From the sequence record PV577658: a DNA stretch of 64,000 nucleotides; one strand, written 5' to 3'. The translations under genes and the position numbers were made by a program. The DNA is from Escherichia phage vB_EcoS_MM-2. Every line of letters starts with the position of its first letter. The stretch's first letter is position 1. The notes under the pieces were generated by a model. It had not been told where the DNA came from, searched no databases, and was given only the letters and a program-made list of their open reading frames with translations. Shown here in pieces: positions 8,617 through 45,842 of the stretch.

Positions 8617-8660
8617 TTGCTTAATCCTATAATTCTTGATATAATATTCTCATAGTTTGA
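8617..8660 (+). promoter_or_regulatory. early promoter (TTGCTT-17-TATAAT)
   Basis: ttgctt..tataat followed by attctcatagtttgaaag, a variant of the downstream box. Confidence 0.5.
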
Positions 8661-8702: not shown

Positions 8703-9113
8703 ATGACTACTCCAACTCAGTGGACTGATGAACTGTTCGAAAAAATGTCTTCCGAATACGTTGCTCGTATGGAGCAATTCCCAGAGGATGAACGTCCGGG
8801 TGTTAGCATGGAAATTGTTAGCGAAATTGCCCAGGAAAATGGTGTAACTCCGAACGGTTTTCGTATGAAGCTGACTAAAGCAGGTTTGTATATCAAGAAA
8901 GCTGCTGGCTCTGCTTCTAAATCTAGCGCATCTACTGGAGAAAAGGCTTCTGGTGGTTCTCGTACCTCCAAAGCTCAAGCTCATGCCGATCTTCGTTCAG
9001 CATTCTCTGATGCTGGCTTAGCACCGGATTTTCTGGATGATGCAATTATCGATAAACTGACCGGTAAAGCGGCTGCTCATCTGGCAGAAGCAATCCGAGC
9101 TATCACTAAGTAA
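8703..9113 (+). CDS. putative DNA-binding protein with HTH-like module, strongly codon-biased
   Basis: MEIVSEIAQENGVTPNGFRMKLTKAGL resembles the repeated module in ORF 12111..12878; CTG/GCT/CGT-rich codon usage. Confidence 0.4.
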   Translation: MTTPTQWTDELFEKMSSEYVARMEQFPEDERPGVSMEIVSEIAQENGVTPNGFRMKLTKAGLYIKKAAGSASKSSASTGEKASGGSRTSKAQAHADLRSAFSDAGLAPDFLDDAIIDKLTGKAAAHLAEAIRAITK

Positions 9114-10164: not shown

Positions 10165-11136
10165 ATGACCAATGTAAAAGACTTTATTAAACGCTGTCAA
10201 GAAGCATATTATCAAGGTATGTCTTTAATCTCTGACGAAGAATATGATCGTCTGATTAAAAGATTTCCGTTAGAAGAAGAGATCGGGCCTAAGGGCGATA
10301 TTCCACATCTGTATCGTATGTATTCTTTACAGAAAGTTTATTATAATCGTGGAGATAAACCCCCGTTTAACCCATTAGGTCAGGTAGAAACTGATAAGTT
10401 AGATGGTTGTGCAATTTCTCTGTTATATATTAATGGCGAATTTGTTCAAGCACTAACTCGTGGTAACGGTATTCTAGGGAATGATGTCACAAGCAACGTA
10501 AGATTGCTGAACATCCCTAAAAAGATTTCCCAAAAAGTACCTACTCAAATCACTGGTGAAGTTCTAATTACAAAAGAAGTAGAAAATAAACGTAACTTTG
10601 CCTCTGGTGCTATTAACCTCAAAGATAGTGATGATTTTGTACAACGTATCGGAGAAGGTGGTTTAATCTTCGTTGCATATGGTATCCAGTGTTCTGCTGA
10701 ATCTGTAGGTATTACAGAAGCATATTTAAAAGATATGCTTTGGCTGGAGAATGAGAACTTCTTAACAGTTGTTAATGTGCGTTCTTTCTTTAAATGGATT
10801 CCGACGGACGGTAAAGTTGTTCGTATTAATGATAACAACAAATTCTTCCGTGAAGGCTGGACTAATAAATTCCCTCGTGGAGCATTCGCTATTAAAGAGG
10901 ATGAAGAAGGCGAGATTACAACTCTTACTAAAGTTGAATGGCAGGTAGGAGCTTCTGGTAAAGTAACTCCAGTTGGTTATTTCGAACCGGTAATTATTGA
11001 TGATGCTACAATTGTTAAAGCGACTCTTAATAACGTTGATTATATTAACTCTCTTGATCTAGAGATCGGTTGCCAGATTCGAGTGATTCGTGCTGGTGGT
11101 GTAATCCCGTGCATAGTAGAGCGAGTATATGATTAA
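10165..11136 (+). CDS. ligA: NAD-dependent DNA ligase, N-terminal subunit (adenylation domain)
   Basis: KxDG adenylation motif (TDKLDGCAIS), LTRGNG, and LigA-like layout. Confidence 0.75.
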   Translation: MTNVKDFIKRCQEAYYQGMSLISDEEYDRLIKRFPLEEEIGPKGDIPHLYRMYSLQKVYYNRGDKPPFNPLGQVETDKLDGCAISLLYINGEFVQALTRGNGILGNDVTSNVRLLNIPKKISQKVPTQITGEVLITKEVENKRNFASGAINLKDSDDFVQRIGEGGLIFVAYGIQCSAESVGITEAYLKDMLWLENENFLTVVNVRSFFKWIPTDGKVVRINDNNKFFREGWTNKFPRGAFAIKEDEEGEITTLTKVEWQVGASGKVTPVGYFEPVIIDDATIVKATLNNVDYINSLDLEIGCQIRVIRAGGVIPCIVERVYD

Positions 11137-11187
11137 TACATAGCCCTTTGCTACCCATCTACCATATCGGAATTATAAAGTGGTTAT

Positions 11188-11215
11188 TGACATTTTCGCC
11201 GCTTAGGTATATACT
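11188..11215 (+). promoter_or_regulatory. promoter-like element in the ligase inter-ORF spacer (TTGACA ... TATACT)
   Basis: ttgacattttcgccgcttaggtatatact. Confidence 0.4.
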
Positions 11216-11279
11216 ATTATCATTCAGTTGAGGGATAGAAAGTTATGGCGAGGGTAAGCAAAGTTAGTTAAAATTGTAG

Positions 11280-11330
11280 TTGCTAAATGCTTAAATACTT
11301 GTTATAATATTTATATAAATTGATAAGGAA
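11280..11330 (+). promoter_or_regulatory. early promoter (TTGCTA-17-TATAAT) upstream of the ligase C-terminal subunit
   Basis: ttgcta..tataat then atttatataaattgataagg; same family as the 9833 promoter. Confidence 0.55.
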
Positions 11331-11335
11331 GAAAT

Positions 11336-12118
11336 TTGATGAAAATCGAAATTCCAACACAATGTCCCTCTTGTGGTTCTAAGCTAGATCTTGTCAACGG
11401 ACAATTATTTTGTCGGAATAAGTCCAACTGTCCAGCGCAATCAAGTAAGTTAATTGAGAACTTCTGTACAAAAATGAAGTTAAAGGGCTTTGGTCCAAAA
11501 ACTATTGAAAAGCTGGAGCTGACGAAGATCTCAGAACTATTTTACCTAACCGAAGAAGATTTGGTTAGAGCCGTGGGTAGCAAGGTTGCCGCTAAGTTAA
11601 TTAGCGAATTAAATACTAAAGTTCGCGGAGACATTGACTTTGGTTCAGTTCTCGGTTCTTTAGGAATCCCTCTAATTGGAGAGGTTGCAGCAAAGAAATT
11701 ATCCCAAAATTGCACTAGCTTCCACGATGTGAAGGCTGACGGCAAGGCTGGAGAAAACTACAAAGCCTGGCTAAATTCCCCGCAAGGCAAGGATGTTATC
11801 GAACTACCGTGGAAATTCTCAACTGGTATTAAGGGCACTAAAGCTGACGTCATCATTACAGATGAATTAGTTGCCCAGCCAAATGGAATCGCGGTATGTA
11901 TTACCGGATCTTTGCAAGATTTTGCAAATCGAACGGATGCAACAAACTATTTAGAAAGTCTAGGGTATACGGTTAAGAAATCCGTTACCAAAGACGTAAA
12001 ATACCTGATCTGTGAGGATGAATCAAAACGTTCTTCCTCATCTTATAAGAAAGCCGAAACGAATGGGATAGAAATCCTGTCGATTAAAGAACTATTGGAG
12101 AAAAATAATAATGTCTAA
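11336..12118 (+). CDS. ligB: NAD-dependent DNA ligase, C-terminal subunit (Zn finger, HhH, BRCT-like)
   Basis: CPSCGSKLDLVNGQLFCRNKSNCPAQ Cys4 zinc finger typical of LigA; likely ATG at ~11339. Confidence 0.7.
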   Translation: MMKIEIPTQCPSCGSKLDLVNGQLFCRNKSNCPAQSSKLIENFCTKMKLKGFGPKTIEKLELTKISELFYLTEEDLVRAVGSKVAAKLISELNTKVRGDIDFGSVLGSLGIPLIGEVAAKKLSQNCTSFHDVKADGKAGENYKAWLNSPQGKDVIELPWKFSTGIKGTKADVIITDELVAQPNGIAVCITGSLQDFANRTDATNYLESLGYTVKKSVTKDVKYLICEDESKRSSSSYKKAETNGIEILSIKELLEKNNNV

Positions 12119-12878
12119 ACTGAACTGGAACGTAGAAGGTGTAACCGAGTCTCTGAAAGCAAAAGCCACTGCTCTGGGTGTTTCTGTAATCTCTCAAGAA
12201 CAAGTAGCTGCTATCGCTGCTGAACTGGCTGCTGAAACTGGCAAAGATGTTACTGCTCGCTCTGTTGGCTCTAAACTGCGTAAAGAAGGTTTTGAAGTAC
12301 AGAAAGCTAACGAAGTACAGAAATCCCCGTGGACTCCTGAGCAGGAAGCTGAACTGGTTGATTTCCTGAACGCTCATGCTGGTCAGTATACCTATGCTGA
12401 AATCGCTGCTGCTGTAGCTGGTGGTCAGTTCGGTGCTAAACAGGTACAGGGTAAGATCCTGAGTCTGGAAATGACCGCTTCTGTTAAACCAACTGAAAAA
12501 GCTGCTGCTGTTCGTTCCTTTACTCCGGATGAAGAAACTGATTTTGTTAATCAGGTTGTTGCTGGTGCTACTATTGAAGCTATCGCTGCTCACTTCGGTC
12601 GTAATATCAAGCAGATCCGTGGTAAAGCTCTGAGCCTGCTTCGTGAAGGTCGTATCGCTGCTATGCCGGTACAGGAAACTTCCAGTGCTAAAACTCGTGA
12701 AGATCTGTTAGAAGGTCTGGATCTGGTTAACATGACTGTTGCTGAGATCGCTGAGAAAACTGGTAAGTCTGAGCGCGGTGTTAAATCTATGCTGTCTCGT
12801 CGTGGTCTGGTTGCTAAGGACTATGATGGTGCCGCTAAGCGTGCTAAACTGGATGCAAAAGCTGCGGCTGCTGAATAA
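12111..12878 (+). CDS. abundant DNA-binding protein with four tandem HTH-like repeats (possibly D5-like)
   Basis: Four ~30-aa repeats of the form (V/Y/I)..(I/Q)(A/V)A..(A/G)....G.......G(S/K).L...G; strong codon bias suggesting high expression. Confidence 0.45.
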   Translation: MSKLNWNVEGVTESLKAKATALGVSVISQEQVAAIAAELAAETGKDVTARSVGSKLRKEGFEVQKANEVQKSPWTPEQEAELVDFLNAHAGQYTYAEIAAAVAGGQFGAKQVQGKILSLEMTASVKPTEKAAAVRSFTPDEETDFVNQVVAGATIEAIAAHFGRNIKQIRGKALSLLREGRIAAMPVQETSSAKTREDLLEGLDLVNMTVAEIAEKTGKSERGVKSMLSRRGLVAKDYDGAAKRAKLDAKAAAAE

Positions 12879-12885
12879 TCTGGTA

Positions 12886-12930
12886 AATTAAACCTAAGGG
12901 GAGGGGGCTATGCTCCTTCCCCTTTTTGCA
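12886..12930 (+). terminator. possible attenuating terminator hairpin
   Basis: G/C-rich imperfect hairpin aaggggaggggg..tccttcccc followed by tttttgc. Confidence 0.35.
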
Positions 12931-14433
12931 TTTAGAAGGCACGAAAGCGTGCAAAGGAGAATGACCTTGTTTAACGTGCAAGCTGTAGTGTTGAAGATGC
13001 TTCTAGCTTCTGAACAGAAGCAAATAGCATTGGAAACATTCTCAAAACTGCATAAAGATCATTTTAATGACGCTTTCTCCTCAATTTACCAAGCCGTCCA
13101 GAATTATTATAAAAAATATAACACAATGCCGTCCATTGACGCACTGATGCTTGAGGCTAATAGGAACGCCCGCCTTTCTCAAGCTCTAGTCGTTTTAGCT
13201 AACACTCAAATTCCAGAAGTGAGCATGGAACAGGCACTTGAAGTCCTAGAGGCCGAATATACACAGGATTTATTCCTAAAGCTTCTAGAAACAGACGTGC
13301 TTCAAGATTTAACAATGCTGGATCAGGGAGAAATTCTCAACCGAGTTGCCTCCCTTCACTTAAAATTAGAAGAGAAAGTAACGAATACTGGAAAAGTATT
13401 CAACGCAGATAACATGCGTATTTTCCAGAGAGAAGAAGATACCAAACTGAACCTAATCGCTCTTGGTATTTGTAATGAGTTCGACGCTCAAATTGGTTTA
13501 GCTCGCACAGAAACGTTACTGCTTGGTGGTTGGCGTGGTACTGGTAAATCCATTATCTGTTCAAACATACAGGTTCAGCAATATTTGAATGGAGATATTG
13601 CTCCATACTTCTCAATTGAGATGAAAGAACATGAAGTATTTAGACGTAATCTAGCCATGCTAGCTGGTGTATCAGCACTAGCAATGCGTAATAATACTCT
13701 AGAAGGTGCAGCTCTGTTGAGACTAGCCAGAACTAGAGCTAGGATGTTCAACGGTGGTGAAGAGCTTTTCGATAACTTCGTTAAACAGTATACAATGGCT
13801 AAGATGAGTGATTTCTACGATATGGAGAGTAAGCTAATAGAAGGGTATGAGCTACATACTCCTATGATTATTGTTTATGACCCTGAGTTGTCTATTACAA
13901 CAGTTGACGTAGAATTAAATAAATTAGTTGCTAGATATGGTGATAAAGTTACAGTAGCTCTACTTGACTATATTAACCAAACCCGACTTCCAGACTCTAA
14001 AACCATTGATATGTATGACTGGAAAGAACAGATGGTTGTTAGCTCGTCTTTCAAATCTATCTGCCAGAAACATAACGTGGCTGGCGTAGCTCCTTACCAG
14101 ATCGATCAAGACGGTAGAACACGTATGTCAAAGGGGATTCTTGATTCCGCAGACATGGCTGCTAATCTTAATGCTGCAAAAGCTGATAATGGTCAAGGTG
14201 CTATTATGTTTGACTTCGTTAAGACTCGTTCTTCTGATAGCGTGAAGTTTATGCCTAAAATGAACTGGGAAACTCTGCGAATGGATAACACTACCAACCT
14301 AGCAATGGAAGATATATCTCAAATGGAAGCTGAGTTCGTTATCCCTATTGAGAAGGATAAGCCGGCTCAACCTAAACGTGCTAAGAAAGACAAAGCTGAA
14401 AATTCAACAGGTGAACAGGCCAGCGATATATGA
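12910..14433 (+). CDS. DnaB-like replicative helicase (likely start at Met ~12961)
   Basis: Walker A-like GGWRGTGKS; RecA-like C-terminal region; AAGGAG RBS before the internal Met. Confidence 0.65.
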   Translation: MLLPLFAFRRHESVQRRMTLFNVQAVVLKMLLASEQKQIALETFSKLHKDHFNDAFSSIYQAVQNYYKKYNTMPSIDALMLEANRNARLSQALVVLANTQIPEVSMEQALEVLEAEYTQDLFLKLLETDVLQDLTMLDQGEILNRVASLHLKLEEKVTNTGKVFNADNMRIFQREEDTKLNLIALGICNEFDAQIGLARTETLLLGGWRGTGKSIICSNIQVQQYLNGDIAPYFSIEMKEHEVFRRNLAMLAGVSALAMRNNTLEGAALLRLARTRARMFNGGEELFDNFVKQYTMAKMSDFYDMESKLIEGYELHTPMIIVYDPELSITTVDVELNKLVARYGDKVTVALLDYINQTRLPDSKTIDMYDWKEQMVVSSSFKSICQKHNVAGVAPYQIDQDGRTRMSKGILDSADMAANLNAAKADNGQGAIMFDFVKTRSSDSVKFMPKMNWETLRMDNTTNLAMEDISQMEAEFVIPIEKDKPAQPKRAKKDKAENSTGEQASDI

Positions 14434-14963
14434 TAACACAGGAAAGGCTAAAAGAGTTATTTGATTACTCCCCAGGAACTGGGGAGTTTACTAGAAAAGT
14501 ATCTAGAGGTAATCAGAAAGCTGGTAGTATAGCTGGTTCTTTAAGAAAAGATGATTATATATGTATATGGGTAGATGGAAAGCCTTACTATGCGCATCAA
14601 CTAGCTTTTCTCTATATGGAAGGTTATTTACCTGAAGAAGTAGACCATATAAACCGTATACGAAGTGATAATCGTTGGGTTAACCTTAAAGATTCTTCTC
14701 ACCAAGAGAATAGCAGGAATAAAGCAGCTAAAAGTAAATCAGGGTATATAGGAGTTAGTTGGAATAAACAAAGGCAAAAATGGCAAGTTCAACTAAGAGA
14801 TACCAATAAAAAGAAAATATTCGGTGGATATTTTGAGTACCAGAATTTAGAATCAGCAGTAGATAAGATTAATAATCTACGATTACAATTTCATGGGGAA
14901 AATGCTATTCAAGAAATATTCGACCCGTCTAATTATCCTGCATTAGAGGAGATAAATTCATGA
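14430..14963 (+). CDS. HNH homing endonuclease with AP2-like domain
   Basis: EVDHINRIRSDNRWVNLKDSSHQEN (HNH); GYIGVSWNKQRQKWQ (AP2-like); ATGA overlaps with both helicase stop and primase start. Confidence 0.7.
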   Translation: MITQERLKELFDYSPGTGEFTRKVSRGNQKAGSIAGSLRKDDYICIWVDGKPYYAHQLAFLYMEGYLPEEVDHINRIRSDNRWVNLKDSSHQENSRNKAAKSKSGYIGVSWNKQRQKWQVQLRDTNKKKIFGGYFEYQNLESAVDKINNLRLQFHGENAIQEIFDPSNYPALEEINS

Positions 14964-20926: not shown

Positions 20927-21211
20927 ATGCTTACAGAGCCTGATGCTCACCAATTGTTGGTCGGTTCCTCATTCATTTTGAATGAATCAACTATTGTTGA
21001 TAATCCAAATAAATTGTCTAATAGACAACTGGCAGAATATCTAGGAATTTTAAGTCTACGAAATTATGCCGAATACAAGTTTACAAACGATCCTAGTTTG
21101 GACATGCAATATGTTCCAGTATGGATACCACGTTTAGTAATCGACACTAACCCATTAATCGCAATTAACAAATCAAAATTAATCTTTAAAGAGGAAATAA
21201 AATATGGCTAA
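20927..21211 (+). CDS. hypothetical protein
   Basis: Track ORF. Confidence 0.35.
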   Translation: MLTEPDAHQLLVGSSFILNESTIVDNPNKLSNRQLAEYLGILSLRNYAEYKFTNDPSLDMQYVPVWIPRLVIDTNPLIAINKSKLIFKEEIKYG

Positions 21212-21977
21212 GTCTTGGGGCGAAACTACTGGCGGTTCTAACGATAAAATCGAATTCCTGAAGTTCAACAACGGTATCACTCGTGTTCGTATCGTTTCTG
21301 GTGTTCTTCCACGTTATGTCTATTGGCTGACTAATAAAGAGGGTAACGTAGCTCCTTTCGAATGTCTCCGTTTTAATCGTGACAAAGAGAGCTTCGTTCG
21401 CGGTAAAGCTGATCCGGTTCATGAGATGGGCTTCTTCGAGAAAGAGCTGGATAAAGATGGTAATCGTGTTCCGCTGAAACCGAAGAAAAACTATATCGCT
21501 TTTGTTATCGATCGCTCTGATAACAAACTGAAAGTAATGGAAGTCAAGGCTACTATTCTGAAAGGCATCCAGTCTATCATGAAGCAGTTGAGTCTGGCAA
21601 CTCCGTTTGATATTGATATTTCTATCGAGAAAAAAGGTAAAGGTTTCGATACTGAGTATGATGTACAGCAGATTGCTGCTATGCAGTTCCAGATTAAGCT
21701 GCAAGATCCTAACAGTGCAGAATCTAAGCAATATGCTGCAGATGTAGATCTGATCGGTGAAGCTATGTGTGATGAAGATGGCGACATCATTAAGTTCGAA
21801 AAAGTTCCTTCTCTGGAACAAACCTATCCGGTTCCTACCTATGAAGAGCAGAAAGAAGCAATTCTAGCCTTCATGGAGGGTCGTGAGAATAAAGATGATG
21901 ATGCCAAATCTGGTAATAGCAATGCAGGCTCCCAGAAAGGTATTGACACAGAAGCTGCAAGCGATCTGGACGACTAA
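21204..21977 (+). CDS. putative single-stranded DNA-binding protein, codon-biased
   Basis: Acidic C-terminal tail (DTEAASDLDD) typical of SSBs; OB fold not verifiable by eye. Confidence 0.35.
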   Translation: MAKSWGETTGGSNDKIEFLKFNNGITRVRIVSGVLPRYVYWLTNKEGNVAPFECLRFNRDKESFVRGKADPVHEMGFFEKELDKDGNRVPLKPKKNYIAFVIDRSDNKLKVMEVKATILKGIQSIMKQLSLATPFDIDISIEKKGKGFDTEYDVQQIAAMQFQIKLQDPNSAESKQYAADVDLIGEAMCDEDGDIIKFEKVPSLEQTYPVPTYEEQKEAILAFMEGRENKDDDAKSGNSNAGSQKGIDTEAASDLDD

Positions 21978-44465: not shown

Positions 44466-45842
44466 TTAAGATGCAGCGTAAGCACCAGATACAACGCCGT
44501 TATTAAAGTAACGTTGCAGGTTAACACGCTGAGTAACGTAGTACGCATCACGCTGTTTACCAGCTTGGCGCTCACGTTCAACAGTAACAGCACGCTGACG
44601 CGGCATTACGAAGTTATCTTTATAAACAATAACTGCGAACTCTGCAGAGTTAGCTTTAGCCGGGAAGAACTCAGAAACTACAACCGGCAGACCGTAAATA
44701 CGACCAACCTGACCTTGCAGTTTAACAGCATCATTACCAACTTGGGCAACATCCTGCCATTCTTCATCTTCCAGCAGATCGTAATAAGCATCCATAGATA
44801 CAATCAGTACCAGTTTGCTCAGTTTCAGACCATGACGGCCCAGTTTACGGCGCAGTTTAGAGATAGTTTTAGCAGTTACCAGAACAGAACCATCAGCTTT
44901 AGCTTCAGTAATAACTTTAGCACTATCGCCTTCAGCCAGTTTCAGCAGACCCTTAGGCTTACCAGTACCGTCACCAGTCATGAAAGCTTCTTCGATAGAA
45001 ACAGCGTGTGCTTCAATCAGACGCTTACGCAGCAGCGGTAGCAGGGAGAAGATTGCATCTTCTTCAGTTTCATCAGTAATGAAGGACTTAGCAGCCAGTT
45101 TATAGGTTTTGAACTGAATTTCAGTCAGAGCACCTTTAACTTCGTCACCAGTAGTAGCATCAGTACCATATGCGCTAGCATCTACCCAAGTAGCTTTACC
45201 AGCATCTGGTTCAACCAGCATAGTAAGAATTTTGCTGGACATTGGCAGTTCTTCAAACAGAGCACCAACTACTAGTTCTTTCTGCAGGTCACGAATAATA
45301 CGCTGGGAGAAAATAGTTTCGTAGCTTTCACTAGAAACTTCTACTGAAGAGGACTGGTTTACAGTTTTCAGGTGTCTCTGGCCATGTTCGGTATCAAATA
45401 CACCTTTTTCCATCACGTAAGACAGAAGAACCAGTTTTTCAACTTCATCTTCAAAGTTTTCCTGAGTACCGTACAGTGCTTTAGTTACGCTATCACCAAC
45501 GAAGGAACGACCTTCACGAGCTGCTAGCAGAGATTTGATTTCGTCCTGAAGACCAACAATAGTTTCCTGCTGTTTTTCTACAGTCTGTGCAAACAGTTCT
45601 GCGCTCTTCTTAGATTTCTCATCCAGGGATTTAACCAGTTCCAGAGCTTCTTCTAGCTTCTGACGATCTTCGCCAACTGCTTTAGAAACCAGGTCATTCA
45701 TACGAGCCAGTTCTTTTTCTTCCTGCTCTTTACGCATACGTTCAGCTTCAGCAGCTTTCTGAGCAGCGGTCAGACCTTCCAGAGATTTAGCCAGATCACC
45801 CAGACCAAGTTCTTCTTTCAGCTTATTAATATCAATAGTCAT
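44466..45842 (-). CDS. major capsid protein precursor with fused scaffold-like N-terminal domain (T5 pb8-like)
   Basis: 458 aa; coiled-coil N-terminal ~150 aa; strong codon bias; position between protease and neck genes. Confidence 0.75.
   Translation of the reverse strand: MTIDINKLKEELGLGDLAKSLEGLTAAQKAAEAERMRKEQEEKELARMNDLVSKAVGEDRQKLEEALELVKSLDEKSKKSAELFAQTVEKQQETIVGLQDEIKSLLAAREGRSFVGDSVTKALYGTQENFEDEVEKLVLLSYVMEKGVFDTEHGQRHLKTVNQSSSVEVSSESYETIFSQRIIRDLQKELVVGALFEELPMSSKILTMLVEPDAGKATWVDASAYGTDATTGDEVKGALTEIQFKTYKLAAKSFITDETEEDAIFSLLPLLRKRLIEAHAVSIEEAFMTGDGTGKPKGLLKLAEGDSAKVITEAKADGSVLVTAKTISKLRRKLGRHGLKLSKLVLIVSMDAYYDLLEDEEWQDVAQVGNDAVKLQGQVGRIYGLPVVVSEFFPAKANSAEFAVIVYKDNFVMPRQRAVTVERERQAGKQRDAYYVTQRVNLQRYFNNGVVSGAYAAS

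Follow-up and report, generated by a model that had tools for sequence, protein, structure and literature searches.

The open reading frame (ORF) at 12111-12878 of the window, by which we mean the whole 64,000-nucleotide stretch of Escherichia phage vB_EcoS_MM-2 DNA (PV577658) that was analysed, is gene D5 of a T5-like phage, and it is likely that its product is an abundant early protein which binds double-stranded DNA (dsDNA), is genetically required for replication, early shut-off and late turn-on, and coats the replicating genome. D5 is long known and its product is a textbook phage protein, so that there is nothing new in the identity. The initial annotation, made from the raw sequence, had claimed a product of 255 amino acids at exactly these coordinates, which is confirmed, the ORF being on the + strand; its guess at a very abundant DNA-coating or transcription-switch protein is supported by the identity of the gene with T5 D5, by the annotation in the T5 record and by a predicted helix-turn-helix (HTH) fold, and indirectly as far as abundance is concerned.

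Identity and distribution of D5

12111-12878, + strand: D5 coding sequence (CDS), an ATG-initiated ORF encoding 255 amino acids (27.1 kDa, calculated isoelectric point (pI) 6.8)

The product and T5.118 (YP_006946.1) are of equal length and identical at 254 of 255 residues; the sole substitution is S25 here for D25 in T5, a difference for which no functional effect is expected. PHROG 323, “transcriptional regulator, D5-like,” matches residues 1-253 (E-value 1.4e-71). Positions 11000-14500 of the window (3.5 kb) share 100% identity with Escherichia phage vB_EcoS_MM-1 (Demerecviridae, Tequintavirus), in whose record the equivalent ORF carries the same PHROG label, and 90-99% with several hundred T5-like phages infecting Escherichia, Salmonella, and Shigella; the source of the window is a Tequintavirus. 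Other phage records name the protein “late gene transcription factor” or “DNA-binding protein D5.” The start at 12111 is supported by the N-terminus MSKLxWN, which is conserved across the family. T5 D5 has the same neighbours (ligB upstream, the D6 helicase downstream) and the same promoters as the gene here, and is the same protein; the gene order D2-D3...ligA-ligB-D5-D6 helicase-primase-pol is common to MM-1, T5 and Vibrio phage Chester, the last of another subfamily. Membership in the D5 family rests on this identity, the profile match and synteny.

The family is found in 902 phage records, from phages of Escherichia, Salmonella, Klebsiella, Proteus, Vibrio, Aeromonas, and Pectobacterium; among isolated phages it is restricted to T5-like genomes of 100-128 kb, and is widespread there. 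A search of 1.84 billion proteins returned 500 representatives at 50% clustering, and our family alignment holds 45 sequences drawn from 759 database relatives. Searched against the predicted viral structures of BFVD, a structural model of D5 retrieved mostly D5 homologs, led by “D5 protein [Vibrio phage vB_ValS_X1]” (E-value 7.5e-27, template modelling (TM) score 0.69), together with scattered multi-HTH phage proteins at low TM.

Modular architecture of D5

Four HTH-like repeats of about 30 residues had been noticed in the initial annotation. Repeat detection and structure prediction do show a fourfold repeated fold, the AlphaFold2 (AF2) model calculated from the 45-sequence alignment consisting of four helix-helix-turn-helix modules plus a C-terminal helix (mean predicted local distance difference test (pLDDT) score 94); the length of the unit had to be revised, as it is a three-helix module of approximately 45-60 residues which recurs with a period of approximately 55-63, and the 30 residues correspond to its helix 2-turn-helix 3 core. 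The features, with helices as predicted by AF2, are:

12123-12296, + strand: HTH module 1, residues 5-62; helices 11-22, 29-43, and 49-58; R50, K55, L56, and R57 invariant
12327-12476, + strand: HTH module 2, residues 73-122; helices 76-88, 95-101, and 109-118; Q113, G114, K115, and L117 invariant
12516-12650, + strand: HTH module 3, residues 136-180; helices 139-150, 155-162, and 166-178; G171 and K172 invariant
12696-12812, + strand: HTH module 4, residues 196-234; helices 210-217 and 221-231, with helix 1 degenerate; G223, L228, R230, and R231 invariant
12828-12872, + strand: C-terminal Ala/Lys-rich helix, residues 240-254, net charge +3; G240 invariant, D237 and K246 nearly so

Conservation is concentrated in the third helices, whose 44 residues hold 14 of the 22 family-invariant columns (Fisher p 3e-7). 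Charge is strongly segregated between helices: every helix 3 has a net charge of +2 to +4, and acidic values are found for both helix 1 and helix 2 in modules 2 and 3 (-1 to -4), for helix 2 of module 1 (-3) and for helix 2 of module 4 (-1); helix 1 of module 1 carries +1. Modules 1-3 each open with one W or F, which module 4 lacks.

Generic Pfam HTH models fall on each of the four modules, and on the predicted structure D5 belongs to the tri-helical, homeodomain-like HTH class. The single module to score above a Pfam cut-off is module 4, on which Sigma70_r4_2 covers residues 204-230 with 28.8 bits (cut-off 25.7); matches of HTH_23, HTH_28, HTH_33, and Myb to modules 1-3 all lie below the cut-offs, among them HTH_23 on residues 151-184 of module 3 (E-value 1.4e-4). 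Compared with sequences in the PDB, module 1 matches engrailed homeodomain variants (E-value 8.5e-4).

Consecutive three-helix modules of about 50-60 residues, with an initial aromatic and then acidic residues and with a basic helix 3, also make up Myb R1R2R3 and the paired/Tc3 arrays; D5 shows weak fold matches to multi-HTH structures (1u78, 4u7b, 9pfo) and a weak Pfam Myb_DNA-binding match on module 2. D5 was nevertheless rejected as a Myb/SANT protein: Myb_DNA-binding scores 17.6 bits against a cut-off of 24.4, and the three spaced tryptophans of Myb repeats are missing. Myb and paired/Tc3 proteins are, moreover, sequence-specific and of low abundance, unlike the mode of action proposed below for D5. 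A sigma factor of the sigma-70 family was rejected likewise: there is no Sigma70_r2 match to D5 at E-values up to 1, the local similarity to regions 4 and 3 is confined to residues 204-230, the likeness of module 4 to region 4 is a match of 27 residues of generic HTH, and D5 is without region 2 or 3 and has no sigma architecture.

Function and proposed mode of action

The dsDNA binding of D5 and its phenotype in replication and late transcription are taken here from the literature and from annotation. McCorquodale et al. (1979, J Virol 29:322) is reportedly the source for the role of T5 D5 in DNA binding, replication and late transcription, and the biochemistry of Rice et al. and of Fujimura and Roop (1979-83) is said to have found its binding to be cooperative and not sequence-specific. 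The T5 record (NC_005859) describes D5 as a DNA-binding protein that is needed for DNA replication and late transcription and has a part in expression shutoff. In proteomics of phiR2-01, a T5-like Yersinia phage, D5 is among the major proteins of virion preparations, and is the only member of that group not known as a structural protein of T5 (PMC8624392).

According to a preprint of 2026, D5 is monomeric after purification (26 kDa), acts on the complex of retron-Kva2 by remodelling it and sets off the retron defence, and is toxic when expressed alone; in the same work AlphaFold3 predicts the retron multicopy single-stranded DNA (msDNA) to be bound by the HTH fold of D5, and escape mutations in D5 were G53D, W74*, V149I, and G232D. 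In our alignment G53, W74, and G232 are near-invariant; the two glycines are located within helix 3 or directly behind it, G53 in module 1 and G232 in module 4. The “phage DNA-binding protein” that triggers DRT4 was also considered as D5 and rejected, as that trigger is ORF55, a different protein.

From the above we infer a mode of action in which the third helices of the four modules would each seat in the major groove of DNA. A single monomer would then span several helical turns, largely regardless of sequence, and the phage genome would be covered by many such monomers while it replicates. Coating of this kind would call for stoichiometric rather than catalytic amounts, a need which would explain the tandem strong early promoters P-K28b and P-K28a, the strong terminator, and the use of host-optimal codons beyond that of the major capsid gene, all described below. 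By altering the access of the host sigma-70 RNA polymerase, and also of the phage polymerase, to promoters, the coat may yield the early-to-late switch. We favour a stoichiometric coat because of the reportedly cooperative, non-specific binding together with the codon evidence for very high expression. The p6 protein of phi29, which binds dsDNA and is made in very large amounts, covers the phage genome and has effects on replication as well as on the early-to-late transcription switch; it may be the nearest functional analogue of D5, in mode of action only, being unrelated in sequence and fold, 12 kDa in size, without an HTH, and different in how it binds.

Several points weigh against a coat of this kind. 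Overall D5 is uncharged (34 K+R versus 34 D+E, pI 6.8), which is unusual for a non-specific DNA coat. The predicted TM score (pTM) of the AF2 model is only 0.54, the modules being well defined and their mutual arrangement not predicted; a search of solved structures with the whole model gave no significant match (best E-value 0.055, TM at most 0.24): the modules being in a flexible or unique arrangement, it returned only generic multi-HTH or winged-helix proteins. One of the retron escapers carries the W74* stop, which sits awkwardly with D5 being essential, barring a mixed population or suppression of the stop. Finally, Klimuk et al. (2020; PMC7472727) still give the mechanism of the T5 class switch as unknown.

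Alternatively, D5 could coat nothing and work catalytically, at late promoters or on RNA polymerase, either as a transcription factor specific for certain sequences or as an appropriator resembling sigma region 4. The above-cut-off match of module 4 would fit this, many records call D5 “late gene transcription factor” or “transcriptional regulator,” and a long composite site might be recognised by four HTH modules together, in the manner of the paired/Tc3 domains to which the weak fold matches point. We regard it as unlikely, since a catalytic regulator needs no codon adaptation that tops the genome, exceeds that of the capsid gene and is kept in a homolog of 48% identity; in addition, sigma region 2 was not found in D5, the protein is a major one in virion preparations (PMC8624392), and the T5 record ties it to DNA replication as well.

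Relationships among the modules and with D3

Modules 2 and 3 are, on sequence comparison, clearly homologous: profile-profile alignment (hhalign) gave a probability of 95.8% and an E-value of 7.5e-9, and as single sequences they reach z = 7.4, with 0 of 2000 shuffles as good. The other five pairs are all weak in profile comparison (E-values 1.5e-4 to 1.1e-2, several at a probability of 4-52%), three being in register across 37-47 columns and two across only 10-20; compared as single sequences, module 4 gives z of 2.0-2.3 with each of the other modules, and modules 1 versus 2 and 1 versus 3 are not above shuffles.

A further comparison is offered by gene D3, whose product had been suspected in the initial annotation to carry a related module, a suspicion that the profiles bear out. 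The features are:

8617-8645, + strand: D3 promoter at the position of T5 P-N26, TTGCTT-17-TATAAT, read from the sequence
8703-9113, + strand: D3 gene, 136 amino acids, 134 of 136 identical to T5.113 D3, annotated “DNA binding protein”

The AF2 model of D3 has helices at 9-25, 34-45, and 50-59, followed by disorder at residues 67-86 and a C-terminal helical domain. With full profiles, hhalign matched D3 residues 1-70 to D5 module 1 at a probability of 93% (E-value 3.5e-7); the D3 N-domain compared with modules 1 and 4 gave E-values of 1.5e-5 and 8.9e-5, and as a single sequence z of 5.7 and 6.9, respectively. The N-terminal three-helix module of D3 is, judged from these alignments, paralogous to D5 modules 1 and 4. 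D5 is therefore made of two sequence types of one fold in the order A-B-B-A, since modules 2 and 3 are homologous, and modules 1 and 4 are linked via the N-terminal domain of D3. Like D5, T5 D3 has the homologous three-helix module, is codon-adapted and stands behind a strong early promoter, annotated as P-N26 upstream of D3 in NC_005859; this promoter is absent from a simple scan because its -35 hexamer shares just three of its six bases with TTGACA. Unlike D5, D3 has one module rather than four, and has a disordered linker and a separate C-terminal domain.

Some further observations concern D3. The linker at residues 67-86 is composed of Ser, Ala, Gly, and Lys, and the C-terminal domain (residues 90-135) has three helices and an invariant DKLTGKAA motif. 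Escape mutations E30Q and G85D were found in D3 in the 2026 preprint, yet D3 alone did not trigger the retron. The label PF26822 is recorded both on D5 homologs (P0045, P0046, P0049, P0062, and P0074) and on D3 homologs (P0164, P0167, and P0171), and would lend independent support to a shared module; it was not returned by the Pfam search run here.

Relatives of D5 with five modules exist (P0174, in which module 2 is duplicated, P0247, and P0308), and the module is therefore an evolutionary unit. Three more distant matches to the D5 profile, P0316 (599 amino acids), P0306 (692), and P0310 (515), have 6-8 D5-like stretches each, which seem to be HTH or Myb-like modules in tandem (W-T-x-E-E ... 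I-A-x-x-L-G-R). One could go further and imagine a modular “phage chromatin,” in which D5 proteins of four or five modules would coat the genome into the virion preparation, D3 would cap the coat or compete with it, and the coat would both underlie the switch and be sensed by defences of the retron-Kva2 type; we give this larger picture little credence.

It is very improbable that a composition rich in Ala and prone to form helices merely mimics repeats here, even though modules 1 versus 2 and 1 versus 3 are within the range of shuffles and several profile probabilities are low, given the E-value for module 2 versus 3, the matches of modules 1 and 4 to the D3 N-domain, the same AF2 helix pattern predicted four times at pLDDT 94, and natural variants with an extra module.

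Codon usage and base composition

The sharp difference in codon usage from the neighbouring genes (CTG, GCT, CGT, and GGT) that drew attention to this ORF is borne out. In D5, CTG, GGT, and GCT each account for 89% of the codons of their amino acid (Leu, Gly, and Ala, respectively) and CGT for 83% of those of Arg; in typical neighbours the share of CTG among Leu codons is 0-25%. With a codon adaptation index (CAI) of 0.738, D5 ranks first of 64 ORFs (median 0.27, standard deviation 0.11), ahead of a major-capsid-like ORF of 458 amino acids at 44466-45842 (0.673), D3 (0.562), and D11 (0.540); these values carry the caveat that the weights, those of Sharp and Li for E. coli, were entered by hand after a table once shipped with Biopython. 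The effective number of codons (Nc) in D5 is 29.6. An unsupervised principal component analysis of relative synonymous codon usage, which uses no outside weights, likewise sets D5 at the far end of its first axis together with the major capsid gene; the main loadings on this axis are those of CGT, CTG, CCG, GGT, and ACT.

Among 38 neighbouring CDS of Vibrio phage Chester, Nc is lowest (30.4) in the D5 homolog (48% identity, same synteny), and the homologs of D3 and D11 in that phage are strongly biased too (Nc 34.5 for D11). Because the same bias is present in this homolog, the strong codon adaptation is an old, conserved property of D5.

The guanine-cytosine (GC) content is 0.455 in positions 12001-13000, against 0.34-0.43 elsewhere in the window. 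In D5 the content at third codon positions (GC3) is 0.31, against a window mean of 0.315, and only first and second positions (GC1 and GC2) are elevated; Ala makes up 17% of the protein, which is also rich in Gly, Glu, and Val. Since GC3 is normal and only GC1 and GC2 are raised, the local bump is an amino-acid effect and no sign of foreign DNA, and for the same reason the codon bias reflects expression level. A recently acquired foreign gene, which the GC rise (45.5% versus approximately 39%) and the codon usage might suggest, can be dismissed as the least probable of the explanations considered: GC3 equals the window mean, the favoured codons are those of the phage's own major capsid gene, and the gene and its synteny are kept across Demerecviridae (902 records), and the bias recurs in a Vibrio phage.

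D11 (21204-21977, + strand; CAI 0.54, rank 4) is annotated in T5 as a single-strand DNA-binding protein, so that a DNA-binding annotation is common to D5, D3, and D11, the early genes with the strongest codon adaptation in the window; NCBIfam has no family for any of the three. An antisense ORF at 12084-12593 (- strand, 169 amino acids), entirely within D5 and the end of ligB, is almost certainly a side effect of the marked codon bias of the sense strand rather than a gene.

The ligB-D5 transcription unit

The following features surround D5:

11187-11215, + strand: promoter, T5 early P-K28b; sigma-70 TTGACA-17-TATACT, 11 of 12 matches in the promoter scan
11280-11308, + strand: promoter, T5 early P-K28a; sigma-70 TTGCTA-17-TATAAT with TG (extended -10), 10 of 12 matches
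11339-12118, + strand: ligB, annotated as NAD-dependent DNA ligase subunit B; upstream gene in the same transcription unit as D5
12097-12100, + strand: GGAG, putative Shine-Dalgarno sequence of D5, 10 nucleotides upstream of the ATG and followed by an A/T-rich spacer
12896-12924, + strand: intrinsic terminator hairpin, a 13-bp stem with 8 G-C pairs and then TTTTTG, 18 nucleotides after the D5 stop

P-K28b and P-K28a stand in tandem between ligA and ligB, and were assigned through a constant offset of 55199, which places both inside features of NC_005859. The NAD-dependent DNA ligase is split into ligA (10165-11136) and ligB (11339-12118) by a spacer at 11137-11338 of about 200 bp that holds these two strong promoters. 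A weak internal promoter match in ligB (11973-12002, 9 of 12) has no counterpart in the T5 annotation.

The stop of ligB overlaps the start of D5 by 8 nucleotides, read in the sequence as ATGTCTAA. There is almost no codon bias in ligB (CAI 0.246, Nc 61, versus 0.738 and 29.6 in D5); because the two genes share a transcript yet differ in CAI and Nc, the difference in their output is presumably set at translation.

The terminator hairpin folds as RNA with -25.6 kcal/mol (z -2.66). The annotated ATG of D6, the DnaB-like helicase, at 12910 falls in the 3-nucleotide loop of this hairpin, and the GGAGG of its ribosome site (12900-12912 with the start) is in the 5' arm of the stem; because both lie inside the hairpin, the ribosome-binding site of the helicase would be hidden on read-through RNA.

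High abundance of D5 is supported indirectly by its codon adaptation, the strong flanking promoters and the terminator, and the published virion proteomics agrees with this.

Significance

The additions made here are modest and incremental, comprising the four-module anatomy with its conservation in helix 3, the A-B-B-A types, the paralogy with D3, the five-module relatives and codon adaptation across subfamilies, and they leave the understanding of the D5 gene unchanged. The main value lies elsewhere: the raw sequence alone gave the right nature of a protein that was characterised biochemically in the 1970s. D5 is nonetheless of continuing interest, as the mechanism of the T5 class switch is still called unknown in a 2020 article (PMC7472727), and as D5 is the natural trigger of a type IX retron according to the 2026 preprint. 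The four separable modules with their conserved third helices, the two module types, the five-module relatives and the paralogy with D3 are handles for mutagenesis.

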